Shown one piece after another: positions 865 through 54,389 of a DNA stretch of 64,000 bases; position 1 is the first letter of the stretch; each line of letters begins with the position of its first letter. The notes below the pieces were generated by a model. That model had not been told where the DNA came from. It worked only from the letters and a program-made list of their open reading frames with translations, and ran no database searches. The position numbers and the translations under genes were made by a program. This stretch comes from a virus: the IMG/VR virus record IMGVR_UViG_3300009161_000023, positions 96,001 through 160,000 of that record; one strand, 5' to 3'.

Positions 865-2463
865 ATGTTTGATTTAATAAAGTCTATAATTGATAATATT
901 TTTGTTTTAGTTGGATTTAAAAAATCAAAAAAAGAAACTTGTCTTTTCAATAACAAACCAACAGTTCAATTGCTTAATGATCCAACAACACCAAGACTAA
1001 AAATTTCTAAAGTTATTATTCCAGCAAATTTTTTAAACTTTACTGTTAAAGGATTTAATTCAACAGGAAATATTTTATTGAGTGAATCTTGGCAAAAAGA
1101 AAATGTTTATGCAAACATTAATGGTGCATTGGCTTACCTTAAACAATATTTTCCTCAGAATGTTAATAAATGGGCAGCAGTAAACAGTTTGACTGTTGAT
1201 ACTAGAGCAGGTAATGATGCAAATGCATATTACGATAGAAGGAATTTAAAGTTTTTTTATTTTAATGCCAATAAAAAAACTATTTATACATGTGATTCTG
1301 CTGATGTTGTAGTACATGAATTAGGCCATGCTATATTAGATTCTATCAGACCAGATTTTTGGAATTTAGCAGCATTTGAAATTGGTGCATTTCATGAATC
1401 TTTTGGTGATTTAACTTCATTATTAACTTGCCTTAGTTATGATCTATGTTTAAATTCTGTTTTAAAAGATACTAATAATGATTTGAGTAAATCAAATTTT
1501 GTAAGTAAACTTGCAGAACAATTTGGTGTTTCATTAAAAATTGGTAATTCATTAAGAAATGCCTTGAATGATTATAATTATGTTGATCCAAAAACATTGC
1601 CTTATGATGGCAATGGATTGATTCAAGAAATTCATAGTTTTTCTCAAGTATGGACAGGAACATTTTATGATTTGCTAGTTGAATTTTTTAATTTGTATGG
1701 TAAAAATTATGCTGCTTTAGTTAAAGCTAGAGATTTATCAGCAGAATTTTTGTATAATGCAATTCAAAACACACCATCAAATCCTAATTTTTTCAAAGCT
1801 TTAGCAACTAATTATATTTCATACGATTTAACAAAATATAATTCTCAATATAATTCTATTTTAATAAAAGTTTTTACAAAAAGAAATTTAATTTCTGCTT
1901 CTTTATCTGATTCTTTGACAAATAATAAATTTAATATTATGAACGAGGGAAACAATATATTATTTAAAGAAGAAAAATTTGTTTCTTTAGATGCTAAAGA
2001 ATTCGATATAAATATTGATGAATTCAATGTTCAAATTGCAGCCGATACTTACAAGCCAAAAAACAATTCGTTTAACATGCTTTCTATTGAAAATAATATA
2101 GATGAATCTTTAGAAGCAGCAAAATTATTTGTTAGATATTTAAAAAACAAAGATAGTATTGGCAATAATAAAAATCAATCTTGGGAAATTGATTCAAAAA
2201 CAAATTTATTGACAAGAAAATTTTCTTGTTATGGTGATTTGGGATTTATTAACAATTGCACAATTGAAGGTCAGCCAGAGTTTGGCAAGTGTTGGAAAGC
2301 AGAAAATAATTCTGGTTGTTGTCCTTTTGGTTGTAAAACAACCACAGAATCATCAATTCCAGAAAAACCTGTATGTAGCATAAGCTATAACAGCTGCAAT
2401 AAAAGTTCTTATATTAGCTGCAACGGAACAGTTAATAGTGTTTGTAATTGTAAAACAAGATAA
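865..2463 (+). CDS. zinc metallopeptidase (thermolysin M4/M36-like) with Cys-rich C-terminal tail
   Basis: NDANAYY, VVVHELGHAILD (HExxH), AFHESFGD third-ligand motif; SD AAGGAG. Confidence 0.8.
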   Translation: MFDLIKSIIDNIFVLVGFKKSKKETCLFNNKPTVQLLNDPTTPRLKISKVIIPANFLNFTVKGFNSTGNILLSESWQKENVYANINGALAYLKQYFPQNVNKWAAVNSLTVDTRAGNDANAYYDRRNLKFFYFNANKKTIYTCDSADVVVHELGHAILDSIRPDFWNLAAFEIGAFHESFGDLTSLLTCLSYDLCLNSVLKDTNNDLSKSNFVSKLAEQFGVSLKIGNSLRNALNDYNYVDPKTLPYDGNGLIQEIHSFSQVWTGTFYDLLVEFFNLYGKNYAALVKARDLSAEFLYNAIQNTPSNPNFFKALATNYISYDLTKYNSQYNSILIKVFTKRNLISASLSDSLTNNKFNIMNEGNNILFKEEKFVSLDAKEFDINIDEFNVQIAADTYKPKNNSFNMLSIENNIDESLEAAKLFVRYLKNKDSIGNNKNQSWEIDSKTNLLTRKFSCYGDLGFINNCTIEGQPEFGKCWKAENNSGCCPFGCKTTTESSIPEKPVCSISYNSCNKSSYISCNGTVNSVCNCKTR

Positions 2464-2483
2464 AAACTCTTAGAAAGGATTAT

Positions 2484-2606
2484 ATGTTCGATGAAATACT
2501 TTTTTTCTGTGCTGGTTTACTTGTTGGTTGGAATTTAATACCGCAACCAACTTGGGTTAAATTACTTTATGATAAAATAATGTCAAAATTATTTCAAAAT
2601 TCATAA
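2484..2606 (+). CDS. 40-aa membrane peptide (MFDEILFFCAGLLVGWNLIPQPTWVKLLYDKIMSKLFQNS)
   Basis: Translated by hand; SD AAAGGA, one hydrophobic helix; below the ORF-track cutoff. Confidence 0.65.
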   Translation: MFDEILFFCAGLLVGWNLIPQPTWVKLLYDKIMSKLFQNS

Positions 2607-2627
2607 TTTATTTAAATTGATCAATAT

Positions 2628-2667
2628 ATAACAAAAGAAATTTATTTAAATAAATTTCTTTTGTTAT
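2628..2667. terminator. perfect 40-bp palindrome, probable intrinsic terminator
   Basis: ATAACAAAAGAAATTTATTT|AAATAAATTTCTTTTGTTAT followed by a T-rich tract. Confidence 0.6.
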
Positions 2668-2692
2668 TTTGTGTTTTAAAATATAATAAATT

Positions 2693-3133
<441 letters not shown>

Positions 3134-3174
3134 ACAAGAAGCATATAGAAACTATTAAAAAAGGCGGTGTACAA

Positions 3175-4467
3175 ATTAAAACTATCATTGTGATTGGTGC
3201 TGGAATTTCTGGATTATCAGCAGCTAAAAGCTTGAAAACAAAAGGTTATAATGTTACTGTTCTTGAAGCTAAAAATTATATTGGCGGAAGAATTAAAACA
3301 CATGATTTTAATGGTATAAAATTAGAAATGGGAGCTTCTTGGGTACATGGACAAATTGGTAATCCTGTAGGAAAAATTGTTAAAAAACAAGGAGGAAGGC
3401 TTGTTCTTTCAGATTATAAACCTCATATTTACTATAATAAAAAAAATAAAAAATTTAATTTTAAAAAAGGAATTCTTAAGAAATTTTATGATAATTTAAA
3501 AGCTATTAAAAAAGACAAAGTTGACCAATCAATACTTAATGCTTGGAATACTTTTGTAAAAGAATCATTAAAAAATTCAAAAAAATATACTCCTTCACTT
3601 ATTGGCGATTTATTTCAAACCATTATATATGATTTTCAAGCTGAGGTTGGAGGTGATTTATCAGAAATTTCTGCTCAACAATGGGATGAAGATGGCGAAC
3701 TTGAAGGAGGAGATCACTTAGTTTTAAAAGGATATGAAAGAGTAACTGAATTTTTAGCTAATGGTTTAAATATAATCTTGAATACACCAATTAAAAAAAT
3801 TGAAGATAATAAAAAATCTGTTAAGGTAACAACAGTAGGAGGCACTGAATACATTGCGGATTATGTTGTTGTTTCAGTGTCTTTAGGAGTGTTAAAAAGC
3901 AACTCTATTACTTTCATTCCTGCTTTACCTAAAAACAAGAAAATTGCTATAGATACAATTAAAATGAGTAATTTTTTAAAAACTTGGTTAGTTTTTGAAA
4001 AAGATTTTTGGAGCAACGCACAAGATATACAGTTTTTTACAAATCATTTATTTTTAGATTTTTTTAACCCTTTATCAGTATCAGCTAATCACTCGGCATC
4101 TTTTAAAAATCCAATTTTATTGGCAATGCATGGAGGAAAACAAGCTGAAAAGGTTAGAGGACTTACAAGTGATCAGATCTCACAAAAAGTTTATAATGTA
4201 CTTGAAAAAGTTTATGGTGGAAAAACAACAAAACCTACTGTGCATCAGAGTTCATGGCATAACGATCAATATACATTAGGAAGTTATTCGTTTATTCCAG
4301 TTGGAGGCAATATAAGCATGTATGATGATATGGCCAAACCATATGGAAAAATTTATTTTGCTGGGGAGCATACATTTGGTAGATTTCATGCAACAACACA
4401 TGGTGCATTTTGGTCTGGTAAAAGAGCAGCAATCGAAATAGATTCTAGAATTTCTTCAATCATTTAA
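3175..4467 (+). CDS. flavin-containing amine oxidase (polyamine/monoamine oxidase family)
   Basis: IGAGISGLSAA, LEAKNYIGGR, EMGASWVHG, YFAGEHT...THGAFWSGKRAA. The Rossmann strand KTIIV lies upstream of the GTG at 3190, so the start is placed at ATT 3175. Confidence 0.9.
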   Translation: MKTIIVIGAGISGLSAAKSLKTKGYNVTVLEAKNYIGGRIKTHDFNGIKLEMGASWVHGQIGNPVGKIVKKQGGRLVLSDYKPHIYYNKKNKKFNFKKGILKKFYDNLKAIKKDKVDQSILNAWNTFVKESLKNSKKYTPSLIGDLFQTIIYDFQAEVGGDLSEISAQQWDEDGELEGGDHLVLKGYERVTEFLANGLNIILNTPIKKIEDNKKSVKVTTVGGTEYIADYVVVSVSLGVLKSNSITFIPALPKNKKIAIDTIKMSNFLKTWLVFEKDFWSNAQDIQFFTNHLFLDFFNPLSVSANHSASFKNPILLAMHGGKQAEKVRGLTSDQISQKVYNVLEKVYGGKTTKPTVHQSSWHNDQYTLGSYSFIPVGGNISMYDDMAKPYGKIYFAGEHTFGRFHATTHGAFWSGKRAAIEIDSRISSII

Positions 4468-5857: not shown

Positions 5858-6628
5858 TTATCCTTTTTTAAAAAATGGACAGATATCATTATAATCGCAC
5901 CTTCTGCAATGTTCTCCGACATTTCCATGTACTTCGTCTGGATCTTTATTTATGATTTTTTTGTAAGTTTCAATTAAAGTTTTTTTGCAATTTTGTAAAG
6001 TTTCTTCGCTAAAGCTTACTGATATTAATTCACATCCATCAAGATAAAACAAAGCTAAAACAATATTTTCTGCTTTTATATTAAACAATTCTTTTACAAC
6101 TAAAGCATAAGTTTGCATTTGCAAATCGCTTTTAATTGTAAATTTATTTTTTCTATAAGGCCCTTTTTTAGTTGTTTTATAATCAATAATAAATATCTTA
6201 TCGTTTTTTTTAATTAATCTATCTATGAATCCATATGCAGTTATATTATTAGGTGGATCTAAATCAAGTTTGAATTCAAATTCTAAATCACCATCAAATC
6301 CTAAGTATTCAGTTATATTTTTAATGGCTCTTACATGATCGCCTATTTTTCTTTGATAGGCAATTGGCAAGCTAATTTTTGATTTATTATCAGAATCTCT
6401 CTGTATAGCAATATTTCCTTCTATTATATTTTTAATATAATGTTCTAAAGTATTGCTGCCTTTTGATTCGACATATAATTCGGCCCCTTTATGAATAATT
6501 TGACCGTATGTAAAATAAATTTGTTGCGGTTTATTTGAAACTACATTAAGATGATATCGGTATTTATACTGCTGTTCGCATAAATCCCAACACTGTTTTC
6601 TACTTACGCTTAAATGTGAAATTTTCAT
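5858..6628 (-). CDS. PD-(D/E)XK exonuclease, Cas4/AddB-like, with Fe-S cysteines
   Basis: GFIDRL...IIDYKT and QMQTY motifs; N-terminal Cys plus C-terminal CRRCDYNDIC. Start moved to MKISHLS. Confidence 0.85.
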   Translation of the reverse strand: MKISHLSVSRKQCWDLCEQQYKYRYHLNVVSNKPQQIYFTYGQIIHKGAELYVESKGSNTLEHYIKNIIEGNIAIQRDSDNKSKISLPIAYQRKIGDHVRAIKNITEYLGFDGDLEFEFKLDLDPPNNITAYGFIDRLIKKNDKIFIIDYKTTKKGPYRKNKFTIKSDLQMQTYALVVKELFNIKAENIVLALFYLDGCELISVSFSEETLQNCKKTLIETYKKIINKDPDEVHGNVGEHCRRCDYNDICPFFKKG

Positions 6629-6656
6629 ACTGTATTTTACACTATTGGAAATAATT

Positions 6657-7658
6657 ATGCAAATTAGTTTTGATGCTTTTAAAGATTGGGCAGATAAAAG
6701 ATTTTCCAACATCTTAATAAAAGGCAATGAAATTAGATTAAATTCTATTTTTTCTGAAGATAAAAGTCATCATATGTGGTGTAATCCTTATGGTGGCAAA
6801 AAAACTATAGATTATGGGGTTTATCATTGTTTTAAAACAGATAAAAAAGGAACTTTGATTGGTTTGGTTATGGAAGTAGATAAGTGTGATTTTTATACCG
6901 CATTAAGGATTTTAAAAGGCGATGCAAGGGTAAGTAATAAACCATTGAATAAAATATTAGATTTTTATGATAATAAAATTTATTCTAAAGTAAGAAAAAT
7001 TAATTTCCCAGAACATTGTTTTAAAATTGATGAATTTTCAAATGATAAAATTCATCAAAATGCAATCGAATATTTAAATAAAAGAAAAATTGATTTTAAA
7101 GATTTTTATGTTTGTTTGAATGGAAATTACAATAATAGAATTATTATACCTTATTTTAATGAAATGAAAGAATTAATTTATTTCAATTCTAGAGCGTTGC
7201 ATGAAACAAAATTAAGATATTTAGGGCCACCAAAAACAATTGGCGTAGGCAAAGAAGATATTCTTTATTTCCCAAGCATTCCAACATCAAAGAAAGTTTA
7301 CCTTACAGAAGGCGAATTTGATGCTTATTCGTTAAAAACATGTGGGTTTAATAGTGCAGCTTGTGGAGGTAAAAATTTATCTGATATTCAAGCATCTATG
7401 TTATCTACTTTTAAAATTTGTCTTTGTTTAGATTTAGATAATGCAGGTACTACCGCTTTGAAAAGCATGAAAAATAAGTTAGATGCTTTTAATTCTTCTG
7501 GATCAAAAAATAGAATTACTATAATTAGACCAGCAGAAGGGTATAAAGATTGGAATGAAATGCTTGTTAAGTTCAACATAGATGTTGTAAATGCATATAT
7601 TGAAAAACACGAAAAATTATTTTCTTTAAGTGACTTTGGAGGCTTCAATGAATTCTGA
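6657..7658 (+). CDS. DNA primase (TOPRIM, DnaG/T4 gp61-like)
   Basis: RIIIPY, YLTEGEFDA, CLDLDNAG, KDWNE; degenerate Zn-binding region YHCFK. Confidence 0.85.
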   Translation: MQISFDAFKDWADKRFSNILIKGNEIRLNSIFSEDKSHHMWCNPYGGKKTIDYGVYHCFKTDKKGTLIGLVMEVDKCDFYTALRILKGDARVSNKPLNKILDFYDNKIYSKVRKINFPEHCFKIDEFSNDKIHQNAIEYLNKRKIDFKDFYVCLNGNYNNRIIIPYFNEMKELIYFNSRALHETKLRYLGPPKTIGVGKEDILYFPSIPTSKKVYLTEGEFDAYSLKTCGFNSAACGGKNLSDIQASMLSTFKICLCLDLDNAGTTALKSMKNKLDAFNSSGSKNRITIIRPAEGYKDWNEMLVKFNIDVVNAYIEKHEKLFSLSDFGGFNEF

Positions 7659-7947
7659 TATTAAAAAAATATTTTTAAATAAAATTTGTACCATAATATT
7701 AAAACCAATTAATAGAAACTTTAACGAAGAACAAAACATTAATTATTTTGTTGGATCTGTTATTGATATTAACGAAGAAGGAATCTTAATGGAACACCCA
7801 GAAAATAAATGTAAAAGTTTTTTTTATAAAAATTCTATTATTGGTTTGGCAGAAGAATTAGTTGTTTATAAAAAAGATGAAGTAAAAAATAAGAATTTTA
7901 ATCCTTATGAAAACATAGATGATTTGACGGATGTTATTAAAAAATAA
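7648..7947 (+). CDS. small hypothetical protein, possible Sm/LSm-like fold
   Basis: SD GGAGG; strand pattern KICTIIL...FVGSVIDINEEGILM...FFYKNSIIGL. Confidence 0.55.
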   Translation: MNSDIKKIFLNKICTIILKPINRNFNEEQNINYFVGSVIDINEEGILMEHPENKCKSFFYKNSIIGLAEELVVYKKDEVKNKNFNPYENIDDLTDVIKK

Positions 7948-7949
7948 TA

Positions 7950-8759
7950 TTAAATATCTGGTATACCAAGACATCCAATTGTTATTCTTGATAGAAAAAT
8001 ATCAAGATCTTTTTTGTTATAACTGTCAATGTTTTCTTCTATGCATCTATAAAGATCATCAACTTTATTCTCTTTGATAGTTAAAATTATTTTTTTATTT
8101 AAAAGTTCTTCAAATTTAGTAATTTGATTTTTAATATCAACTACAAAATCTTTTCTATCAAGATTATTTAACAAGTCTGATATTTTTTCTTTTATTTCTT
8201 TAATTTTTTCAACTAAATATAAATCTGGTTTAGTAGCTTCTTCTGGTTCTTCTGGTTCTTCTGGTTCTTCTGGCTTGCTTGGTTCTGCTAGTTCAGAAGA
8301 AGGTTCTACAGTAACTTTTTTTGCTGCTTCGTATCTTTTTTCGTTTTTTAAAACATTAATAATTACATTTAAAGTATTTTCAATTTCATTTATTTTATCT
8401 GATATTTCTTGAACCATTTTATCTCGACTCAATTCAATTGAATAATAATTAGATTGATTCCAAGTTTTTATAGCATCATAAATTAAATTATATGTTTTTT
8501 CATCAAGACAAAAATCAGGAATGTTGTTGTAAACTGGCTTCTTTTTTCCAAATAATTTTTCTAATACAGTTTTTTTTTCAGAATCAACATCTGGATTCTG
8601 TGTTTTTATTTCAGATTTGCATTTCTCTTTTAAATCATTTAGAAATTTATTATAAGACGGAAAATTGTCATCAACAAAACTTCTTGTTTTGCCAATAAAT
8701 TCTCTTTTTAATTCTTTCAAAGTTGAAACAAGATTATATAACTGTCTTAAGTTTGCCAT
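7950..8759 (-). CDS. hypothetical helical protein with PEE repeats
   Basis: PEEPEEPEEPEE encoded by 9-bp repeats near 8240-8270; ATATATA 4 nt before ATG. Confidence 0.65.
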   Translation of the reverse strand: MANLRQLYNLVSTLKELKREFIGKTRSFVDDNFPSYNKFLNDLKEKCKSEIKTQNPDVDSEKKTVLEKLFGKKKPVYNNIPDFCLDEKTYNLIYDAIKTWNQSNYYSIELSRDKMVQEISDKINEIENTLNVIINVLKNEKRYEAAKKVTVEPSSELAEPSKPEEPEEPEEPEEATKPDLYLVEKIKEIKEKISDLLNNLDRKDFVVDIKNQITKFEELLNKKIILTIKENKVDDLYRCIEENIDSYNKKDLDIFLSRITIGCLGIPDI

Positions 8760-8762
8760 GTA

Positions 8763-9230
8763 CTATATATTATTTTTTTTTAAAAAGCTTCCGATTTTTT
8801 TCAAAGACATTATTTTTGAATCGAAATCATGAAAATCACTATTTGTATACTGTATGTTTAATTCATTGAATTGAGATTCTTCTTCGTTTGAAACAACATC
8901 AAAATAAAAACTTTTTCCTATTTTGCTTATTAATTTAAACTTATGCATTAAAAGATATGCAGCAACTCCTAAATCAGTAACAAAGCAGTCTGAGTTGCTT
9001 TTAATATTAAAATCTTGTAATTTTTTAAGTCCCATTAAACAATGATCAAAGTAATGAAATTCACTTAATAGATAGCTAACAATTAATTCATCAAATTTAA
9101 GTTCATCATTTTCATTAATTTCAAAAAAAAATATTTTTTCTTTTTTACCTAATAAATTAAACTTATTCATTAGCAAATAAGCTGAAATTCCTAAATCTGC
9201 TTGTGATTTAACTATTTTATTATTTATCAT
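8763..9230 (-). CDS. internally duplicated small-domain protein (DUF5659-like x2)
   Basis: ADLGISAYLLMNKF...FDHCLMGLKK and TDLGVAAYLLMHKF...FDSKIMSLKK; ATGA overlap with the actin gene stop. Confidence 0.65.
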   Translation of the reverse strand: MINNKIVKSQADLGISAYLLMNKFNLLGKKEKIFFFEINENDELKFDELIVSYLLSEFHYFDHCLMGLKKLQDFNIKSNSDCFVTDLGVAAYLLMHKFKLISKIGKSFYFDVVSNEEESQFNELNIQYTNSDFHDFDSKIMSLKKIGSFLKKNNI

Positions 9231-10237
9231 GATAAGGATGCCTCTGCTGCAATATAACAGCCTCTAGTTACACTAAACAAAGGATCAGGTGGCATTATTA
9301 CATTTCCAATTGGAATGCTTAAATCGGCACTTTTAATTGTTTGTTCAAATATTTCTTTAAATCCATCTATACTTGCAGTTCCACCAGCTACAACAAAATC
9401 AATTGGTTCAGCAATTCTTACTGATTTACCAGCATTTGCTAATCCATTCTTAATACCGACTACAGTTTTTTCAATCATCAACTTATATTGAGTTTGTATT
9501 GCTCTTTCAATCAAGTTTGTTGGTTCTTTTATTAGACTAACTTTCATTTTTTCTTTATTTATGAAAGTTGGGCTTTCGCCAGTAGCCTTTGCAGCTTGTT
9601 TATCAATCCAATCTCCTGAATTTACTATTGCAAATTGAAAAATTGGATTTCCATACATTGCAAAACAAACATTAACCATGCCCCCACCGCAACTACAACT
9701 TATACCTGTAAAATTTTTATTTCCTAATTCAGCATAGACTAATGCTAATGCTTCATTTATTGGTCTAGATTCTAATTTTGATCCATTGTTAGATTCATAA
9801 GCATTAAAAATAGCTTGTAATACCTTGCTGTGATAATCAGCATCTGTTTCTAAGTTAATTGCATTTGCTGGCACACAATAATACAAAAGAGAATTTTCTT
9901 GAATATCACCAATTAAACTATGTATCATAATGCTTAAAATTTGAAATGCATCTTTTTCTTTAGGATTCACACATCCATCACACATCGGTCTTTTTAATTC
10001 TAAGCTAGGTAAAGTATAAGCCATGTTTACAGCAGATTCGCCTAATGCATATGCTACCTTTCCTTTTTCAATTAATGGAACGCCTGCATTTTTCATCATG
10101 TTGAAAACGAATCTGTTTTCTAAAGGTAGCTCTAAGAAAGCATTAATTTCTTTTTTGTATGAAAACTCTTCTTTGTTTTTCTTGCTACAAATTAAAGTAT
10201 ATGTGCCAACATCGAATCCAATAATTGATTTTGCCAT
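9227..10237 (-). CDS. actin-like ATPase (volactin/MamK-related)
   Basis: Phosphate-1 GFDVGT, connect-1 PINEALA, phosphate-2 SCGGGMVN, adenosine VVAGGTAS, connect-2 PLFSVTRG; SD AAGGAAG. Confidence 0.9.
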   Translation of the reverse strand: MAKSIIGFDVGTYTLICSKKNKEEFSYKKEINAFLELPLENRFVFNMMKNAGVPLIEKGKVAYALGESAVNMAYTLPSLELKRPMCDGCVNPKEKDAFQILSIMIHSLIGDIQENSLLYYCVPANAINLETDADYHSKVLQAIFNAYESNNGSKLESRPINEALALVYAELGNKNFTGISCSCGGGMVNVCFAMYGNPIFQFAIVNSGDWIDKQAAKATGESPTFINKEKMKVSLIKEPTNLIERAIQTQYKLMIEKTVVGIKNGLANAGKSVRIAEPIDFVVAGGTASIDGFKEIFEQTIKSADLSIPIGNVIMPPDPLFSVTRGCYIAAEASLS

Positions 10238-10246
10238 GACTTCCTT

Positions 10247-10489
10247 TTATTTACCAAAGTTTAAATTGTTTGTCTTTGTGGATTTAAAATCAGGTATCTC
10301 CCACATAGGATTTTCTTCTTTTTCTTTAGTATCATTAGTTAAATTTATAATAGTGTTTTGTGGAGAATTTTGAGAATTAAAATTAGGCATACCAGTAAAA
10401 TTGATATTTACATCTAGTGTTATATGAAGAGAACACTCTCCATCTTTTGTAACTACTTTCACTTTATTGTTGTCTATTTTGTAAACCAT
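10247..10489 (-). CDS. small protein upstream of the actin gene
   Basis: Start moved to MVYKID (10489), 4 nt after the upstream gene stop; ends WEIPDF...LNFGK. Confidence 0.6.
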   Translation of the reverse strand: MVYKIDNNKVKVVTKDGECSLHITLDVNINFTGMPNFNSQNSPQNTIINLTNDTKEKEENPMWEIPDFKSTKTNNLNFGK

Positions 10490-10493
10490 AGTA

Positions 10494-11459
10494 TTAAAAA
10501 TATTTATTAATAAGCTCTTCGATTTTTCCAACGAATTCTTCATTAGTTAATTCAGAAACACAAGGTTTATTACTTATTACATTTGTTTTAGTACAAGCAC
10601 CATAATTCCAGCAAGGGCCACAATCCCAATTACCATTTTTCCTATGTCTTTGTAAAACAATTGTATTTTTATAATACTTGCAATATACATATCCATCTAC
10701 ATAGCTAAAAATTGCTAAATTTGGTTTATTTAACCCACCAGAGCAGTGTAAATGTCCTGTATCTACAGTTATTGTTGCTTTTGATAAGTAATGGGCAGCA
10801 ATTACATCATCAAAAGAATTTAAGCATAAAAATGGATATCCTTTTCCTATTAAACTTAAATTAATTTGATTATGTAAAATTATACAATTAATTTTCCTCT
10901 GATATAAATACTTCAATATAAATTCAATTTGACCAACTAATAAATCTTTAGCTGGTTGAGCAGAAAAAGGGCATAATAATACAACAGGAGCTTTATTAAA
11001 TATTATAAATTTTTCAATATAAGAGTTTACTTTGATTATCGATTCTTCTCTTGGAGACAAATACATATTATGATTCTCAGGGTAGACACCACAATGTTCA
11101 GCCCATATGTCACTTCTGTGAGTAACACAATTAACTAAATATTTCCATTCGTGTCTAATGCAAGCATTTTTTAAATCAAATACTTTTATAAAATCATTTT
11201 TATTTATTGATCCTGAATCTGAAATTTCATCTATAAAAGGATGGGATCCTATAGAGTGATAAGCTTTTGGAATTGACCAATTAATATAAAAATGAGGATA
11301 TTTTTTCTTTATATCTTCAAACATCATTCTCATCATTAGAATGTCACCAAACCCACCCATTTCTCTCAAAAATAATATTTTTTTTCTTTTATTATAATAT
11401 TCATCAATTTTATTTATGTAAATATCATTGTTTGGTTTTTTAATTAAACATTTAAGCAT
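10494..11459 (-). CDS. glycosyltransferase family 9 (heptosyltransferase-like)
   Basis: REMGGFGDILM, LLCPFSAQPAKD, ITVDTGHLHCSGGLNKP; Cys-rich tail CGPCWNYGAC. Confidence 0.85.
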   Translation of the reverse strand: MLKCLIKKPNNDIYINKIDEYYNKRKKILFLREMGGFGDILMMRMMFEDIKKKYPHFYINWSIPKAYHSIGSHPFIDEISDSGSINKNDFIKVFDLKNACIRHEWKYLVNCVTHRSDIWAEHCGVYPENHNMYLSPREESIIKVNSYIEKFIIFNKAPVVLLCPFSAQPAKDLLVGQIEFILKYLYQRKINCIILHNQINLSLIGKGYPFLCLNSFDDVIAAHYLSKATITVDTGHLHCSGGLNKPNLAIFSYVDGYVYCKYYKNTIVLQRHRKNGNWDCGPCWNYGACTKTNVISNKPCVSELTNEEFVGKIEELINKYF

Positions 11460-11474
11460 AACTTATTATAATAA

Positions 11475-11504
11475 AAAAAGTCATCTTGTTAAAGATGACT
11501 TTTT
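11475..11504. terminator. intrinsic terminator hairpin
   Basis: AAAAAGTCATCTT-GTTA-AAGATGACTTTTT, 13-bp stem, downstream of the 11529..12095 gene. Confidence 0.8.
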
Positions 11505-11528
11505 ATTTTTTAAAGTTTTATATGCTTT

Positions 11529-12095
11529 TTAGGTATAGCAAATACTTTTTACGCCAGCAATAATTTGAATAGAAGCAGATCCTGCACCAGCAGCAGAGAA
11601 ACCAAGACTAGTAATTTGCAAATCGCCATGATTAAAAGTTTGGGTAGAAGTTGAACCAATTGTGAACTGTGCAGATGGTAATCCGTTTAGTTCGCAAACA
11701 ACATCATCTTCACCATTGTTTGTTATTTGAATAAATGATGCAAATGAATTATAAAGAGTTAAATAATTAATAGCTTCTACAATAGAAGTTGTAACAGTAG
11801 TGACATTAGTTACTACTGGGAAACTATTTTCACTTGGATCATTACTGTATACAGATCCATCATCGGTTACAGTTTCAACAATAGCATCTTCATAAGATGC
11901 TTGAGGATAAGCAAATTTTTTCCAATAGTTACAATCAGTAAAAGTTTCACCATCCATTAATTCTCTGTAAATCCCATTAGGGCCAGCAACATACATTCCT
12001 CTTTGAACAGAAGGATTTATTTGTGATCCATTAGAAGGATTAATGTCTAATTTTCCTTGATCTATATTATTAAGGGCTACTTTAAATTCACTCAT
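11529..12095 (-). CDS. hypothetical beta-rich protein, possibly virion structural
   Basis: SD AAAGGAG; upstream ATATATA; beta-strand-rich C-terminus. Confidence 0.65.
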   Translation of the reverse strand: MSEFKVALNNIDQGKLDINPSNGSQINPSVQRGMYVAGPNGIYRELMDGETFTDCNYWKKFAYPQASYEDAIVETVTDDGSVYSNDPSENSFPVVTNVTTVTTSIVEAINYLTLYNSFASFIQITNNGEDDVVCELNGLPSAQFTIGSTSTQTFNHGDLQITSLGFSAAGAGSASIQIIAGVKSICYT

Positions 12096-12152
12096 TTTTT
12101 CTCCTTTAAGATTTATATTGTATTCTTACAATTATCTAATCTATATATAAAG

Positions 12153-12758
12153 CTAAGAGCTAAAAATGATATTTTCTGGGAAGATTTTCTTATAAATATC
12201 TTTACAATAGCTGTCTTCTACTAGAATTGTTTCTAACCCTCTGTATGCTCCTAGATATAATTCTGGGGATTCTAGACCAGCAATGCATCCTAATTCGTTT
12301 ACATTGTAATCCTCATTAACTATTTCATATCCTTTACTTATAATAAACTCTTTTAGATTTTTAAGCTTGTTTGAATTTAAAGTTGTCCTTCTAGTTGATT
12401 CTATTATTAAACATTTTTTTGATAAATTTTTTACTAGAGGCTCTTTCTTTACAACTAAATTAATATTCGTATCAAGAATCAACGATGTCAATGGATGAAC
12501 CTTGAAGTTTTCTTTACAATCATAAATACAACCAAACTTTTTCTTGTTGTTTATTAAGAAATCAAAATCAATAATGTTTTTTTGTTTATTAAAATTTCCA
12601 GATACTGATTTGTTGAATCCATAAAATATTTTCAACTCTGGGAAATATTCTTCTAGTTTTTTTCTAATTAACAAAAGAATTATTGGTATTTCTAAGTTGT
12701 GACTTAGATATGATATGCAGTAATTATTGTAAATCATATTATAATTTTCAATTATCAT
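12153..12758 (-). CDS. hypothetical protein, degenerate GT9-like C-terminus
   Basis: IAGLESPELYLGAYRGLETI echoes the GT9 motif; ATAAATA 5 nt before ATG 12758. Confidence 0.45.
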   Translation of the reverse strand: MIIENYNMIYNNYCISYLSHNLEIPIILLLIRKKLEEYFPELKIFYGFNKSVSGNFNKQKNIIDFDFLINNKKKFGCIYDCKENFKVHPLTSLILDTNINLVVKKEPLVKNLSKKCLIIESTRRTTLNSNKLKNLKEFIISKGYEIVNEDYNVNELGCIAGLESPELYLGAYRGLETILVEDSYCKDIYKKIFPENIIFSS

Positions 12759-12773
12759 GTATATATTTATTAT

Positions 12774-12935
12774 ATGGATGAAAAACAAAAAACAACTGAT
12801 ATTTTAATTGAAAGCAAAGAAGGTTTACAAGAATTAATGAATAATTTTGATAATAAAGAAGAAGCATTAATTAAATTACTTGAAATTATTAAAGAAAAGG
12901 GGAAATTAGATGAAGCATTTTTTATACCTTTGTAA
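12774..12935 (+). CDS. 53-aa hypothetical protein
   Basis: Hand-translated MDEKQKTTDIL...DEAFFIPL; diverges 15 nt from the ATG at 12758. Confidence 0.5.
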   Translation: MDEKQKTTDILIESKEGLQELMNNFDNKEEALIKLLEIIKEKGKLDEAFFIPL

Positions 12936-13257
12936 AAGGGATAAAAAAGGGGTTATCCTCCTTTTAACTTTAAATGGCGGGAAAATACCAATAACATACC
13001 TTAACGATTTTGATAATATTGGATTGCCAGATAATATAAAACAAAAATGTGAAAGATATTATGATTCTTTAAGATTTAATTGGCAAATTGTCGTTGAGTC
13101 AAATGATAACTTTGATATAATTAAAAAGAATCTTCATAAGAATGGTTATAAAAATATACAATTTGATAATGCTCCTTTGTTTTTCAACTTAGAATCAAAT
13201 AAATTGAATATTTTAGAAAAATTACCAAAAAAGATGTTGCAAAAAAAAATTATTTGA
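12910..13257 (+). CDS. hypothetical protein
   Basis: 115-aa ORF with a purine-rich SD. Confidence 0.6.
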   Translation: MKHFLYLCKRDKKGVILLLTLNGGKIPITYLNDFDNIGLPDNIKQKCERYYDSLRFNWQIVVESNDNFDIIKKNLHKNGYKNIQFDNAPLFFNLESNKLNILEKLPKKMLQKKII

Positions 13258-36875: not shown

Positions 36876-43733
<6,858 letters not shown>

Positions 43734-46584: not shown

Positions 46585-47070
46585 ATGGTTTTAAAAAATA
46601 ATAATAATAATGATGCATTTCAAGCAAATTATAATTTCTTGCAACTTAGCGATTCTATTAAAGAAATTGCAGTTATGATTTCAAAAACTGATATTCATTT
46701 GGAAAATATAAAAGCTCAGCAATTTGAGTCTATAAAAAAAATCGAGAGAATTGAAGAATTTATGAATAATTTTTCAAATTTAGAAAATAAAATTAAAATT
46801 ATAGAGCAAAAAGATTTGGTTATTATTAATAAAGAAATTGATTATCTTAAATCTGAATTTGATAAAGCAAAAGATTGCATTGATGAGTTATTTAAAAAAA
46901 TTGATAGTCATAAGACTAAGATATGGGAAGTTAAAGGAGACACAAGAGAAATTAAAGTTTTCAATGAAGATTTTAAAAGCAGGTTAAAGTTTATGGCAGA
47001 TTTATTTTTTAAAATTGCAATTGGATTATTCTTAAGTTTCGCAGCATATAAAATGGGATGGGAAAAATGA
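46585..47070 (+). CDS. coiled-coil protein with C-terminal TM helix (XhlA/holin-like topology)
   Basis: Long heptad region then FFKIAIGLFLSFAAYKMG; ATAAATA 4 nt before ATG. Confidence 0.5.
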   Translation: MVLKNNNNNDAFQANYNFLQLSDSIKEIAVMISKTDIHLENIKAQQFESIKKIERIEEFMNNFSNLENKIKIIEQKDLVIINKEIDYLKSEFDKAKDCIDELFKKIDSHKTKIWEVKGDTREIKVFNEDFKSRLKFMADLFFKIAIGLFLSFAAYKMGWEK

Positions 47071-48344
47071 ATATATTTGAAAATGAAGATTACATGCCAA
47101 AAGTAAAATTACAGAAGAAGTCTACTGTTCCTTACTTGAAGCCATTTTTTGTAAATAGTCAGACTAATTCTGCTTTGCAGCCTATTATTGATAGTTTCAA
47201 CAATTCTGATTCTGTAAATGTTGGGTATACGACTATAAAAAAAGATGGAGAGGAAGAATCTCCATCTTTGAAAAAGAAAACTATTTGGCTTACTGGAAGT
47301 TCTTTAAGAAATCATTTATCAAATGAAACATTTTACAATTACACTTGTGTAACAAATGCTTCTCCAGATGAAATTAAAATGATTTTAAATCAATCAAGTT
47401 ATGATTTTCAGCAAGTTAAACCTAAAGGAGAAATTGGAAATATAGAAAAATATAAAAATTTACCTGATGAAACTAATGATAAATATTTTTTTTATATAAG
47501 TAAAGTAGATGAGCAAAACAACGAAATGGAAGTTACAGCATCTGTTTCTGGAAATCTTGTTTACATAAGTACTTTAAACAGCAATATTAAATTTAAAATT
47601 GGCAATGATAAACTTAGAAAATTTACTTCATCTATTTCTGAAGATGCAAAAGGAAGAGATTTTTCTGTTAATGCTATTTATTTAAAGCTTAAAGATTCAA
47701 ATGGCAACAACAATGATATTTCTGATCCTGTTGGAGGAATGCATGATATTGCCAACAATAATATTAAATTATTAAATTCAACTTCGTTTACATTTAAAAC
47801 AAATCCAGCTTTGATTATTACTTTTTGCGAATTAAGTTCAAAGTTTAATAAAGATAAAAAGATAGAAAGAAGTGATTTAGTTTCAATTAAAAAAAACATT
47901 GATAATTTTAAAGATTATCCAAAACTATTTATTAGAACTTTAAGAAATTCAGTTAATAGTTCATCTACTCCAATATTTAGTTTTTTAAATAATCTTTATA
48001 TTACTGGGATGTTTGGAAAAATGTTTTCAGGTCTTAAAATAAGTTTGCCTCACATGGGATTACCTAGATATTTTGATTTTGTAATTGGTTATTTATTACA
48101 CGAGAATGAAAAAGAAAAAGTATCTATGGTTTTGTCTGAATTAGATTTTAATAAATTTGATATTAAAGAAGTTGAATTTACTATGGATTTAACAAAATGG
48201 ATTAAAACAGAAGACGATTCAATACTTAAATCTTTGCTTGATAATCAAAACAATCAATCTATAAATAAAATATACAATTATTTAAAATCTTTTGGAAAAG
48301 ATGTTATTTTTAAGAATGCAGCTAAAAAATATTTAGAAATGTAA
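47067..48344 (+). CDS. class II CCA-adding enzyme/poly(A) polymerase homologue with degenerate active site
   Basis: WLTGSSLRNHL...YNYTCVTNASP, EDAKGRDFSVNAI, DPVGGMHDI; ATGA overlap with the upstream gene. Confidence 0.75.
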   Translation: MNIFENEDYMPKVKLQKKSTVPYLKPFFVNSQTNSALQPIIDSFNNSDSVNVGYTTIKKDGEEESPSLKKKTIWLTGSSLRNHLSNETFYNYTCVTNASPDEIKMILNQSSYDFQQVKPKGEIGNIEKYKNLPDETNDKYFFYISKVDEQNNEMEVTASVSGNLVYISTLNSNIKFKIGNDKLRKFTSSISEDAKGRDFSVNAIYLKLKDSNGNNNDISDPVGGMHDIANNNIKLLNSTSFTFKTNPALIITFCELSSKFNKDKKIERSDLVSIKKNIDNFKDYPKLFIRTLRNSVNSSSTPIFSFLNNLYITGMFGKMFSGLKISLPHMGLPRYFDFVIGYLLHENEKEKVSMVLSELDFNKFDIKEVEFTMDLTKWIKTEDDSILKSLLDNQNNQSINKIYNYLKSFGKDVIFKNAAKKYLEM

Positions 48345-48356
48345 TTATTTTAAAGT

Positions 48357-49205
48357 ATGCACTTTTTAACAATAGCAGAAGATACTCCTTATTATCAATG
48401 GCAAATTGAATTATTAATTGAATCGTTCAAGATGAAAAAACTTGAAGACAAATTATTCATATATCTTATAAAGACTGAAAATTCAGTTGATGGTATAAAA
48501 AACAACATTAATAGTCATCCTAATTTATTTTATTACAATTCAGATAGGATAAAAACTTGTAGTTTAAATTTTGATTTTCATCAATGTATTTTAAATTATA
48601 GAAATAATTTTCCACTAGAAAATTTTATGATTTTAGATACTGATAACTTATTAAAAAACATTGATGAATCTGATTTTAATTTACAAAATTTAGTTTATCA
48701 GATTGATCAAAAGGAAAACGATGAGTTGTCTTTAATATTAAAACTATCAAGAAGTAAATATAATTATAGTTTTTATCCTATGACATCGATTATTTACTTT
48801 AGTGCATTTTATTCATATGATTTTTTCAAATCTGCATTTTTAATACTAGAAGACTTAATTAAAATTTCTTTTTTTTGTAATATTGATAATGAAAAACATG
48901 AACCAGATTTAGATTTATATAAATATTCTTATTTGATTCTTTCATTAATGTATAACATTAAAGTTAATCCTTCATATAAGCTTTTAAATTATGCATATGA
49001 AGGCACTGACATGGATGTAAATTTTATTTCTTACAAGCATGATGTTAAACCTTACTTTTATAAAAAAAATTACTTTCAAAAGGATTTTAAAAATCTATCT
49101 TTGAGTTATACTGACCCATTTGAAAACATGTTAGATTTACCAGATTTTGTTGGTTGTTCTTTTATAAAAAGCATTGTTTTAAGTTATCAAAATTTTTCTG
49201 ATTGA
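48357..49205 (+). CDS. putative GT-A glycosyltransferase (HPAT/SERGT-like N-terminal motif)
   Basis: YYQWQIELLIESF and FMILDTD (DxD). Confidence 0.45.
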   Translation: MHFLTIAEDTPYYQWQIELLIESFKMKKLEDKLFIYLIKTENSVDGIKNNINSHPNLFYYNSDRIKTCSLNFDFHQCILNYRNNFPLENFMILDTDNLLKNIDESDFNLQNLVYQIDQKENDELSLILKLSRSKYNYSFYPMTSIIYFSAFYSYDFFKSAFLILEDLIKISFFCNIDNEKHEPDLDLYKYSYLILSLMYNIKVNPSYKLLNYAYEGTDMDVNFISYKHDVKPYFYKKNYFQKDFKNLSLSYTDPFENMLDLPDFVGCSFIKSIVLSYQNFSD

Positions 49206-50281
49206 GTTAAAGCACTAGCTACTACTTGATCCATATTATAATATTGATATTTTCCTAATCTTCCGCCAAATATAATTTGATCATCATTCATTAGGCTAAC
49301 ATATTTTTCATAGATTTCTTTATTTTTACTTGTTGGTACTGGATAATATGGTTCATTGCCTTCTTGAACATTATAATCCTGTGGATATTCTTTTGTTATC
49401 CATGATCCAGTTACTGTTTCATCGTGAAAGAACTTAGATTCAAATATTCTAGTATAAGGTATTTTTTCATCTGTATAATTAATAATAGAATTTCCTTGAT
49501 AATCATTTTTATGAAATGTTTCTTCAAATCTCAATGATCTATACTCAAGCAACCCATAAGAATAATTGAAATATTGATCTACCTTACCAGAGTAAATTAT
49601 TTTCTTATAATTTTTTAAATAAAAGTTTTTGTTTTCAAAGAAATCTGTATTTAAAATAACTTTGATTTTTGGATTATCTAAAAGTTTTTCAAATATTTCA
49701 GTATATCCATTTGTTGGTATACCTTCAAATTTGTCATCAAAATATCTATCATTGTAATTTAATCTAATTGGTATTCTTTTAATTATAGAAACTGGTAATT
49801 CTTTTGGATCTTTATTCCATTGTTTTTTCGTATATCCTTTTATAAAAATTTCATAAAGCTCTCTGCCGATATTTGCCAAACAAAATTCTTCTAAGTTTTT
49901 AGGATCAGCTATACTTAACTTTTTATCTTCAAGGATACTCTTGGCATGGTCAGGAGTAATACAACCATAGACTTGATTTAAAGTAAAAAGATTTATTGGA
50001 AATGAATATAGTTTGTCTTCATAAATAACTTTAGTATGTTGTTTTTTATTGTTAAATTTTACAATTCCATTCATGTATGACCAAATTCTTTGATTGTTTG
50101 TATGGAATATATGAGGGCCATACTTGTGTACTGGTATATTATTTTTAATTTCAGTATAACAGTTGCCACCAAAATGATTTCTTTTGTCTAAGACATCTAC
50201 AAAATATCCTTTTTTAGCTAATTCGCTAGCTAATACTGAGCCATAAAGACCAGAACCTACAACAAGAATTTTATGCTTCAT
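49187..50281 (-). CDS. glf: UDP-galactopyranose mutase
   Basis: VVGSGLYGSVLA, GGNCY, HKYGPHIFHTN, DRYFDDKFEGIP, EPYYP, GRLGKYQYYNMDQ. Confidence 0.95.
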   Translation of the reverse strand: MKHKILVVGSGLYGSVLASELAKKGYFVDVLDKRNHFGGNCYTEIKNNIPVHKYGPHIFHTNNQRIWSYMNGIVKFNNKKQHTKVIYEDKLYSFPINLFTLNQVYGCITPDHAKSILEDKKLSIADPKNLEEFCLANIGRELYEIFIKGYTKKQWNKDPKELPVSIIKRIPIRLNYNDRYFDDKFEGIPTNGYTEIFEKLLDNPKIKVILNTDFFENKNFYLKNYKKIIYSGKVDQYFNYSYGLLEYRSLRFEETFHKNDYQGNSIINYTDEKIPYTRIFESKFFHDETVTGSWITKEYPQDYNVQEGNEPYYPVPTSKNKEIYEKYVSLMNDDQIIFGGRLGKYQYYNMDQVVASALTQSEKF

Positions 50282-51131
50282 ATAATTTAATCTCTTCTGT
50301 TATTTCTTTATTATCGTTCATTACGAAATCATCAATTGGTTTTCTATAATTATTTTTAATAAGGTTTTTGTTCATAATTGGTCTTGAAACGCCTATTAAG
50401 ATTTCAGGGCCTTTATTATTGTAAATTTTATCAAAGTATTCTAAATTAAAATAAACATTTGATGAAATATTTTCCATATAAATATTTAATTTTTTATTAT
50501 ATTTAGGATTTTTATCACTTATAGAAAGAAGAGTTTTAAAACCTTTTAAATCAATATTAATATTTATTTTTCTTGACACATCTCTACAGATATATTTATT
50601 ATTAGATTGATGACAAAAAAACGAAAGAAATATTTCTAGTCCTTTACCAAAATTTTCAGTTGATATATTAAAATCAATAAAATTACTTAATATATCTTTT
50701 CTTACAGCAAAACATCTAGGGTCAGGACATTTAATAATATTAAGTCCATAAAATTTATTAATATTATAATTTAAAGGATCATTGAAGTAAAAATATTTAG
50801 AATAATTTAAATTAAAATCTAGAATACCAGCATCAAAATAATATTTATCAAAAAACCATTTTGTTTTTTTTATTAAGTATGGTATTTCTTTATATGCATC
50901 AAATGAACCATGCAAGAAAAAACATACTTCTTCTTTTTGACTTAACATTCTTATGAATAATTTTTTTAAATTTTTACTTTTGTAATTTATTATTTTAATT
51001 TTTTTACTTTTAAGCTTTTTGCTAAAATTAAATAAAGAAAATTTAATTTTGTGTTTTCTTAAAAAATTAATAAGATCATAATTTATTTTTTCATGTTTAA
51101 AACGAAATATAATAAATCTTAATTTTATCAT
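50271..51131 (-). CDS. hypothetical protein, possibly glycosyltransferase-like
   Basis: Within the glycan island; no intact motif. Confidence 0.5.
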   Translation of the reverse strand: MIKLRFIIFRFKHEKINYDLINFLRKHKIKFSLFNFSKKLKSKKIKIINYKSKNLKKLFIRMLSQKEEVCFFLHGSFDAYKEIPYLIKKTKWFFDKYYFDAGILDFNLNYSKYFYFNDPLNYNINKFYGLNIIKCPDPRCFAVRKDILSNFIDFNISTENFGKGLEIFLSFFCHQSNNKYICRDVSRKININIDLKGFKTLLSISDKNPKYNKKLNIYMENISSNVYFNLEYFDKIYNNKGPEILIGVSRPIMNKNLIKNNYRKPIDDFVMNDNKEITEEIKLYEA

Positions 51132-51913
51132 TATTTTCTACTCAGTTCATATAGTATTTCATTCAAAGAGTCTTCAGTTTTGACTGGGTGAACAATAGAG
51201 AGTTGTTTATTAATTTCACTTGCTTCTATAGGGGGCCTAAATCTCATCATGTATTTCTTATTCATTCCTTGCCAAGAAAAATCTTCTTCTTTGAATCTGG
51301 TATAACTAAAAACATTTAACTTGTTGTACATGCAAATAGTTGGAAGTAAGACTTCAATAACATCATATTGATGAAAATTTGGATAAAATCCTTGAGGCAT
51401 AAGACTTGTGAAATTTAAAAATTTTTCAAATATTTGATTACAAAGAATTTCCATTAAATTTCTTTTAATGAAATAACAACATCCTAAGATACAATAATAA
51501 TCTTCAAAGCTTACATCTAAACATTTTTTGAACATATCATCTTCGCAAAAAACATGTCTAAAATCATTTGCTATTAAGCTGTAATTTTCATTAATATATT
51601 GAAAATCATTTTTGAATTTTTCATTTAAAATAAAGTTATCAAACTCACTAAATAAATACCAATCTGCATTAGGAAAAAGTTCGTATGTTTTTTTCAAATT
51701 TAACATTACATTTTTAAATGGATTCCTTGCAGCAGTATGTTTGAATCCTTCTATTACATTAACATCAGAAAAGTAATCTAAAGGCCATTCTTCATAAGAA
51801 GTTCCTTCTATTAAAACTGAAATATCATGAGTAACATTCTTCTTTAGAAGATCAATATTTCTTCTTGCTAAAGATGGATCGTTATGAACATTTAAACTTG
51901 CAGCGAATATCAA
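51131..51913 (-). CDS. putative GT-A glycosyltransferase
   Basis: ADWYLFSEFDNFIL, GCCYFIKR, IVHPVK. Confidence 0.55.
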   Translation of the reverse strand: MIFAASLNVHNDPSLARRNIDLLKKNVTHDISVLIEGTSYEEWPLDYFSDVNVIEGFKHTAARNPFKNVMLNLKKTYELFPNADWYLFSEFDNFILNEKFKNDFQYINENYSLIANDFRHVFCEDDMFKKCLDVSFEDYYCILGCCYFIKRNLMEILCNQIFEKFLNFTSLMPQGFYPNFHQYDVIEVLLPTICMYNKLNVFSYTRFKEEDFSWQGMNKKYMMRFRPPIEASEINKQLSIVHPVKTEDSLNEILYELSRK

Positions 51914-51922
51914 TTTTTACCT

Positions 51923-52504
51923 CTATTTTATTATATTGCTTTTTAATACAATAAAATCAAATTTTTTCTTATTTAAATAATAAATTTTCCATTCATTAAT
52001 ATTTAAAAGGTAATCTATTTTCTTAAAGAAATAATCATCTATTCCTTCTATAATAATAAATTTTTCTGGTTTAATATTATTAAATATAATATCATAAAAA
52101 CTATCGCTATTATTTTTTTTAATATAATTATTTATAAAAAGAAGATCTACGCTAATATTACATTTAAACAATATATTTTTTGAATTTTCATATAATAATA
52201 ATTCAATGTCATCTATGTAATTAATTAATTCATAATAGCTTAAGTTAATTTCATCATCTATTTTTGCTAATAATTTTGGTTTTCCTGCAAGTAGTGCTAT
52301 GCTTGGTAAATTAAAAAATGAATTTACTTGAAATACACTATCGCAATCTTCTGCTATGAGTTTTAATATTTTTAAATTTTCTTCATAGTCTTCTATTATG
52401 TCTTTTTCAATGCAATCACTATGAATGAATTTATAAATTGGGTCTTTGTATTTTTTAAATAAATTTAAATAAATATCAGTAATGTTTTTTATTTCTTGCA
52501 CCAT
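51923..52504 (-). CDS. class I SAM methyltransferase-like protein (degenerate)
   Basis: ALLAGKPK, VDLLFIN; lacks a canonical glycine SAM loop. Confidence 0.45.
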   Translation of the reverse strand: MVQEIKNITDIYLNLFKKYKDPIYKFIHSDCIEKDIIEDYEENLKILKLIAEDCDSVFQVNSFFNLPSIALLAGKPKLLAKIDDEINLSYYELINYIDDIELLLYENSKNILFKCNISVDLLFINNYIKKNNSDSFYDIIFNNIKPEKFIIIEGIDDYFFKKIDYLLNINEWKIYYLNKKKFDFIVLKSNIIK

Positions 52505-53583: not shown

Positions 53584-53596
53584 GTATTAATATAAT

Positions 53597-54385: not shown

Positions 54386-54389
54386 ATAT

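Follow-up and report, generated by a model that had tools for sequence, protein, structure and literature searches.

Phage cytoskeletons known so far comprise tubulin spindles (PhuZ) and a few actins of the ParM/Alp type. In the ParM/ParR system, a short C-terminal peptide of ParR docks on the actin. Here we describe a compact (~1.7 kb) three-gene locus from the window, i.e. the 64,000-nucleotide stretch at positions 96,001 to 160,000 of the IMG/VR virus record IMGVR_UViG_3300009161_000023. It encodes an actin-fold ATPase of the volactin family of 336 amino acids (aa) at 9227-10237, a small acidic protein of 80 aa, p80, at 10247-10489, and a 155-aa protein with a tandem DUF5659-like domain, p155, at 8763-9230, all on the minus strand. 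A first-pass annotation, made from the sequence letters, had proposed these genes to be an actin operon of a jumbo phage.

The closest described relative of the actin is VolA (HVO_2015) of Haloferax volcanii, which forms dynamic filaments in vivo and has a role in the rod-to-disk shape transition (Schiller et al. 2024, PMC10869688). Both proteins belong to the same family (PF25216) and share the same set of motifs, including a phosphate-2 serine. VolA, however, is archaeal, whereas the protein described here is encoded by a tailed huge phage, falls into a clade of its own and is accompanied by two phage-only partner genes, and the role of VolA need not transfer to it. The AlpC/AlpA/alpS system of the Corynebacterium prophage CGP3 offers another likeness, as a phage-encoded actin is co-transcribed there with a small partner, for which a coupling of cargo to the filament has been proposed, and is needed for efficient phage replication (PMC4446434, PMC5539076). 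AlpC, however, represents another actin family, and AlpA, encoded upstream of it, has 24 alpS repeats in the promoter region as its binding sites. Unlike AlpACS, the module of the window has no such repeats within 7000-13000, has two partners rather than one, neither of them basic, and resides in half-megabase genomes of the virulent type.

The order of an actin gene followed by the gene of a small dimeric protein is also that of ParM/ParR/parC, and in our case it was found in 83/83 related loci, the two genes being ATGA-coupled in the window. On the other hand, positions 7000-13000 contain no parC-like iterons, p155 has a DUF5659-like alpha/beta fold with no ribbon-helix-helix (RHH) match found, and the candidate docking tail is carried by a separate protein, p80. 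Finally, the PhuZ spindle of nucleus-forming jumbo phages (Chimalliviridae; PMC7950403, PMC8314001) is comparable in being a cytoskeletal polymer of a very large phage, presumably organising the infected cell, but it has a tubulin and not an actin fold, and no tubulin was found in the five large records of our phage clade that were searched, including complete genomes of 533 and 572 kb. Our literature search found no paper describing a phage volactin; of the 17 papers that mention volactin, one alone contains the word 'phage', a single time, and judged by its title and abstract it deals with Haloferax cell shape and motility. Nor is a phage actin of the volactin type mentioned in the jumbo-phage reviews and comparative papers searched.

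The assignment of the 336-aa protein to the volactins, which the first-pass annotation had made from its motifs, was borne out by the Pfam search. The Volactin model PF25216 matched it with 203 bits (cut-off 35; E 1.1e-59) over model positions 3-321 of 321, and its relatives scored 200-245 bits. The match of MreB/Mbl (PF06723) was limited to residues 58-133 and, at 21.9 bits, lay under the cut-off of 27, while no Hsp70, sugar-kinase or FtsA family was matched. Among 14 control genomes PF25216 exceeded its cut-off in Haloferax volcanii only. Searches of PHROGs, NCBIfam and PADLOC gave no match, and the sequence search of the PDB returned chance matches only.

The five motifs of the actin/Hsp70 fold, noticed earlier in their proper order, are conserved throughout the family. 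In an alignment of 91 members, residues G7, D9, G11 and T12 of phosphate-1, E162 of connect-1, S182, G184, G186 and N189 of phosphate-2, the GDWID motif with G208, D209 and D212, and G285 and G286 of the adenosine motif were all invariant or nearly so. The absence of the canonical aspartate from phosphate-2, another of the early observations, is real, but as the serine in its place (S182, conserved in at least 90% of the members) is common to the whole volactin family, it is not a sign of decay. Judged by these motifs and the profile match, the protein is a genuine member of the volactin actins, and its nucleotide-binding site is intact.

Structure prediction placed the protein closest to filament-forming actins. 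The AlphaFold2 (AF2) model of the actin is of high confidence (predicted local distance difference test [pLDDT] 96.3, predicted template-modelling score 0.93), and a Foldseek comparison with the PDB placed Mbl/MreB, MamK, BeeR and eukaryotic actin at the top (E 1e-15 to 1e-13, template-modelling [TM] scores 0.65-0.74); sequence identity to the MreB-type structures is only 14-19%. All rows listed to rank 48 are filament-forming actins, and the first non-cytoskeletal member of the acetate and sugar kinase/Hsc70/actin (ASKHA) superfamily, EutJ, stands at rank 49. The clustering with non-polymerising ASKHA enzymes that the first-pass annotation had named as its refutation was thus not seen. The order of the five nucleotide-binding motifs and a two-lobed fold nearest to polymerising actins group the protein with the cytomotive branch of the actin/ASKHA fold.

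The relatives of the actin add a further observation on its active site. The 712-aa actin of locus L003 (L003:5369-7507, plus strand) contains a Hint/LAGLIDADG intein, and 16 representatives (including P0126, P0133 and P0205) are interrupted at three sites, i.e. after S182, after M187 and at the glycine of GDWID. The intein boundaries are classic, with a cysteine at the start and HN followed by a cysteine at the end. All three sites lie inside the phosphate-2 or GDWID loops, which are the best conserved of those that bind the nucleotide. Such positions would be expected of inteins in an indispensable active site, and we take them as indirect evidence that the interrupted loops cannot be dispensed with.

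The position of the actin gene between its two partners was confirmed in the open reading frame (ORF) listing (translation table 11), which contains the genes at the positions claimed for them. The ATG of p155 overlaps the TGA of the actin gene (ATGA), as read directly in the letters of the junction, and an AAGGAAG box is located 3 nucleotides (nt) 5' of the actin ATG. Counted from its first ATG, the ORF over p80 extends over 10247-10543 and encodes 98 aa; however, its homologues are ~77 aa long and their alignment starts at the ATG at 10489, therefore the 80-aa start is correct. The claim of an operon held as far as the small flanking genes are kept with the actin, but the unit is larger than the three genes proposed. 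The gene of a 321-aa protein, GT321 (10494-11459, minus strand), ends 4 nt before the p80 start, and p269 (7950-8759, minus strand), a protein with a Pro/Glu-rich linker, starts 3 nt after the p155 stop. The gap 5' of GT321 is 70 nt long and holds a 13-bp hairpin with a T-run (11465-11504, minus strand; hairpin at 11475-11504), overlapping the best promoter-like match of the region, the sigma70-like TTAACA-16-TATAAT. Terminator-like sites were more frequent than expected (7 observed versus 2.1), whereas in the same scan promoter-like sites were not enriched, and for this reason the promoter call is weak. Still, the 11465-11504 site is likely the boundary and the start of the actin transcription unit, and the tight junctions together with this site suggest that a tightly packed unit, likely GT321-p80-actin-p155-p269, is present, with GT321 as its first gene and p269 as its last. 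It is situated at the far end of a long series of minus-strand genes for PKD, baseplate and tail proteins. A primase (6645-7658, plus strand) and a PD-(D/E)XK nuclease (5858-6727, minus strand) lie 1.1-2 kb from the module, in agreement with the nearness noted before, and adjoin the unit in ~50/83 loci.

The duplication noted earlier in p155 is a true internal one, as the two halves of the protein are 48% identical (E 2e-18), with a matching DNA repeat, D1. In the AF2 model (pLDDT 93.5) they form two domains of ~70 aa with a beta-alpha-beta-beta-alpha-alpha order, i.e. a pseudo-dimer. Neither a Foldseek comparison with solved structures (nothing at E<=0.001) nor a VIA wide search (best Z of 4.8 to generic alpha/beta sandwiches, within the tool's stated background) identified a counterpart. 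A shape search of the ESM Atlas found viral single-domain proteins of ~71 aa (TM 0.80) and the model of a DUF5659 cluster (TM 0.72, root-mean-square deviation 2.3 over 68 residues), while the likeness of the domain to parts of primase-type proteins and SpoVG is weak, with low TM scores, and serves as a lead only. The predicted fold is thus similar to that of DUF5659 (PF18903), but no p155 member reaches the Pfam cut-off: p155 of the window and its halves gave no match, and the single-domain relative P0276 scored 18.7 bits against a cut-off of 23.6 (E 0.0015). We therefore call p155 only DUF5659-like, on the basis of its model. It has no match in PHROGs, NCBIfam or PADLOC and none to RHH or helix-turn-helix (HTH) families, and a literature search found no paper on DUF5659. 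Weak Pfam matches to LidA_Long_CC in 32/35 p155 members (best 30.6 bits) cover 67 of 177 model positions without supporting context, and we rejected homology to a Legionella effector, taking the matches to reflect the composition of one repeat or a similarity local to it.

P0276 is encoded beside the actin of L094 and is a homologue of p155 (hhalign 97.7%, E 2e-12), and single-domain forms are also found in L073, L039 and LR756511. Their existence in relatives indicates that p155 is a fused tandem, i.e. a fused dimer which arose within the clade; the basal relatives are single-domain forms. The protein is acidic to neutral (median isoelectric point [pI] 6.4). In ~14 loci (L002, L025, L030, L031, L035, L036, L044, L046, L048, L049, L051, L053, L055 and L081) an insertion of 600-1100 bp separates the actin and p155 genes, and these insertions may be mobile endonuclease genes. 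The p155 homologue of L002 is extended to 269 aa.

The partner encoded upstream, p80, belongs to no Pfam, PHROG, NCBIfam or PADLOC family. In an alignment of 37 sequences (A2), its N-terminal segment (VKVxTKDGE..LDLNINLN) is beta-rich and conserved, the linker that follows is acidic and variable, and the tail at the C-terminus, WxIPDF...(I/L)NFGK, is invariant. Its median pI is 5.2, and within the clade carrying the trio of p80, actin and p155 it has no transmembrane segment. The equivalent small upstream protein of L090, a member of a sister lineage, has a transmembrane helix and a p80-like tail (...DMF...KFG).

The huge-phage setting suggested by the first-pass annotation is supported by the tail and baseplate genes within the window and by the relatives, which are located on phage genomes of about 250-600 kb. 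More than 1000 relatives of the actin are present in a set of 5.8 billion proteins (838 clusters at the 50% level), and the nearest Atlas clusters are 92-96% viral. IMG/VR contains 126 matches, on contigs of up to 572 kb, and 83 related loci carry an actin 64-93% identical to that of the window. Two uncultured huge phages in GenBank encode a match, LR756511.1 (595 kb, 61.5%), which carries the trio too, and LR745208.1 (485 kb, 28.7%). Of 50,697 records searched, none from an isolated phage matched the actin, and an 18-kb portion of the window, compared with the GenBank phages by megablast, had no match either. In the IMG/VR classification the records G004 (the L036 record, 532,729 bp) and G007 (the L039 record) are 'provirus', and G005 (572 kb) has direct terminal repeats. 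Matches also occur in three contigs of metagenome-assembled genomes (MAGs), L001 (CAYVOK010000005.1), L002 (JAYVUD010000122.1) and L003 (RXKI01000042.1), binned as Acidimicrobiaceae, Chloracidobacterium and Neisseriaceae. We rejected these as a sign of cellular origin, as all three show the phage gene order around the actin (p188, GT, primase, nuclease) and their taxonomies are incompatible with each other; the probable explanation is mis-binning of phage DNA into bacterial MAGs.

Conservation of the flanking genes with the actin, on which the early proposal depended, was observed across the related phages. The p155 gene is found downstream of the actin in 83/83 loci, and p80 upstream of it in 72/83 loci by tblastn or 76/83 by ORF-level blastp. 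Both partners share the orientation of the actin in every case, and the gaps are short, in most loci no more than a few tens of bases. A single volactin gene is present in each of the two CheckV-complete genomes, of 533 kb and of 572 kb (the latter with terminal repeats); p80 and p155 are single-copy in them and occur only beside the actin (a 64%-complete record of 323 kb was searched as well). The actin is the best conserved of 14 neighbourhood genes, with a median identity of 67% across the 83 loci versus at most 48% for the other 13. By this measure it is under strong purifying selection. The GC content of the loci spans 27-56%, yet actin identity does not fall below 64%, which implies very different hosts or strong compositional drift, with the actin tightly constrained.

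In the phylogenetic tree (IQ-TREE, 94 rows, rooted on a single MreB-like outgroup and leaving out ParM, crenactin and salactin), the trio-bearing actins formed one clade (Shimodaira-Hasegawa-like approximate likelihood-ratio test 97). This clade lies next to other volactins with a phage context and apart from the acidic cellular ones, to which it is ~30% identical. The phage clade is nested among PF25216-type representatives, and the MreB-like outgroup branch has a length of 6.3. Profile and tree placement, which the first-pass annotation had suggested as a check, thus group the protein with the volactins, apart from MreB, and not with ParM or FtsA. A cellular MAG with acidic proteins and GatB nearby (GCA_964580675.1, L092:4001-6770) carries two tandem volactin genes (381 and 517 aa), which suggests that some cells possess paralogous volactin pairs. 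At 43% actin identity, L094 still encodes a protein resembling p80 upstream of the actin, together with a p155 homologue of one domain, while the surrounding genes have changed.

As for the outer genes of the unit, the glycosyltransferase family 9 (GT9, heptosyltransferase)-like signals of GT321 are weak (Pfam E 0.0088, TIGR02193 E 1.2e-6, PDB heptosyltransferase E 0.07) and below all curated cut-offs. GT321 was detected in 56/83 loci, and GT9-like genes also adjoin the actin in the 42-43% identical relatives L090 and L094. In 78/82 loci p155 is followed by a co-oriented gene encoding 155-737 aa, often with Pro/Glu/Thr-rich linkers. Seventy-one of these genes represent one family, conserved in the N-terminal ~40%, the window version clustering only with its two closest relatives. 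Possibly the p269-type gene adds a fourth component to the module, one that evolves fast.

Elsewhere in the window, the structural gene run contains an ORF of 2285 aa (36876-43733, minus strand) with no Pfam or PHROG match. Positions 47058-55658 and 865-4467 encode a nucleotidyltransferase of the CCA-adding/poly(A)-polymerase type, a UDP-galactopyranose mutase, a DegT-type aminotransferase, an ATP-grasp enzyme, a flavin amine oxidase and an M36/M4-like metallopeptidase. Such a set of sugar-modification and metabolism genes is typical of huge phages.

Based on our observations, we regard the locus as a real, conserved and so far undescribed phage actin module, the mechanism of which we infer from the dynamic filaments of VolA (PMC10869688) and from the precedents of ParM/ParR and AlpC/AlpA (PMC4446434). 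We suggest, with somewhat more confidence than doubt, that it is a dedicated phage actin cytoskeleton in which p80 serves as a tether and p155 as a hub, the filament positioning phage cargo. The actin would polymerise with ATP into dynamic filaments, as VolA does in vivo. The invariant C-terminal tail of p80 would dock on the actin, its N-terminal beta segment replacing the transmembrane helix of the equivalent L090 protein, and p155, as a bivalent hub (a fused DUF5659-like dimer), would join the tether or the filament to the cargo. Replicating DNA or assembling particles might thus be positioned in the infected cell according to the logic of ParM/ParR, AlpC/AlpA or PhuZ. These half-megabase phages without tubulin probably build actin filaments of their own. 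A more far-reaching proposal, which we put forward tentatively and hold to be possible rather than probable, is that the volactin filament, the tail-docking tether p80 and the dimeric hub p155 constitute a three-part machine that actively organises replication or virion assembly as an actin-based counterpart of the PhuZ spindle, in which case phages would be a major, possibly ancient, reservoir of volactins.

Several observations weigh against the cargo-positioning cytoskeleton. The 7000-13000 region contains no iterated or centromere-like repeats, the sole long repeat being the internal duplication of p155 (the rest of the genome was not searched), and with both p155 and p80 acidic to neutral, an adaptor binding a DNA centromere in the manner of ParR or AlpA is not supported; a classic copy of ParMRC is unlikely. 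Moreover, p155 matches no solved fold of known function (Foldseek, VIA wide), a GT9-like enzyme in the unit hints at a link with the envelope or glycans rather than with cargo transport, and the more distant phage volactins of L089 and L091 have no recognisable p80 or p155, so that these partners are lineage-specific and not universal.

The GT9-like gene forms the basis of an alternative that we consider unlikely, namely that the actin and this enzyme organise or redirect host envelope or glycan synthesis, or enlarge or reshape the host for very large virions, like wall guidance by MreB or shape control by VolA, with p80 and p155 as regulators or anchors. GT321 opens the same closely packed unit, similar genes adjoin the actin in L090 and L094, the small protein of L090 is membrane-anchored by its helix, the window is rich in sugar-modifying enzymes, and cell shape is the known phenotype of VolA (PMC10869688). 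However, the GT9 assignment lies under all curated cut-offs, the gene is present in 56 of the 83 loci while p155 is present in every one, p80 of the trio clade has no membrane segment, and an identity of 14-19% to MreB-type structures makes co-assembly with host MreB unlikely. Slightly less probable again is a type II partition system (ParMRC/AlpACS-like), in which p155 would be a sequence-specific centromere adaptor and the phage DNA would be segregated or positioned, e.g. in a plasmid-like carrier state. The gene order and the translational coupling match parM-parR, a prophage precedent exists in AlpC/AlpA (PMC4446434), primase and nuclease genes adjoin the unit in about 50 loci, the p155 domain has its weak likeness to primase-type parts and SpoVG (a lead only), and two large records bear the label 'provirus' in IMG/VR. 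Against this stand the lack of iterons or centromere-like repeats in the 7000-13000 region, with almost no intergenic space around the trio, a p155 that is not basic and matches no RHH or HTH family, and a unit located at the end of a tail-gene strand run, not in an early or replication cassette.

It could also be that the actin polymerises while p80 and p155 are regulators of assembly (a nucleator, capper or sequesterer) or merely syntenic genes, as neither has a known functional domain and distant phage volactins do without both. To this we assign a low probability, lower than to a partition system, since the association is strictly 1:1:1 and single-copy in complete genomes, the actin and p155 genes are translationally coupled, and the trio is kept down to 43% actin identity while the surrounding genes change. 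The least probable explanation, in our judgement a very improbable one, is an ASKHA ATPase (chaperone-, kinase- or EutJ-like) that has the actin fold but does not polymerise. It would account for a phosphate-2 motif without the canonical aspartate, but the serine is a trait of the family whose founder, VolA, polymerises in vivo, the structural neighbours listed to rank 48 are all cytomotive actins, and Pfam matches to Hsp70, sugar kinases or FtsA are lacking.

A strongly conserved volactin-family actin with its own partners, as proposed for this module, would be a new kind of phage cytoskeleton. With volactin actins on over a hundred viral contigs, including complete genomes of 533-595 kb, it could have a bearing on the way in which the largest phages arrange their replication and assembly. 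Its predictions, i.e. polymerisation, tail docking and hub dimerisation, are testable in vitro despite the uncultured hosts. The picture of the volactins themselves also shifts, as the family has so far been seen as a haloarchaeal shape protein, while the closest relatives of the phage actin in the searched databases are mostly viral.

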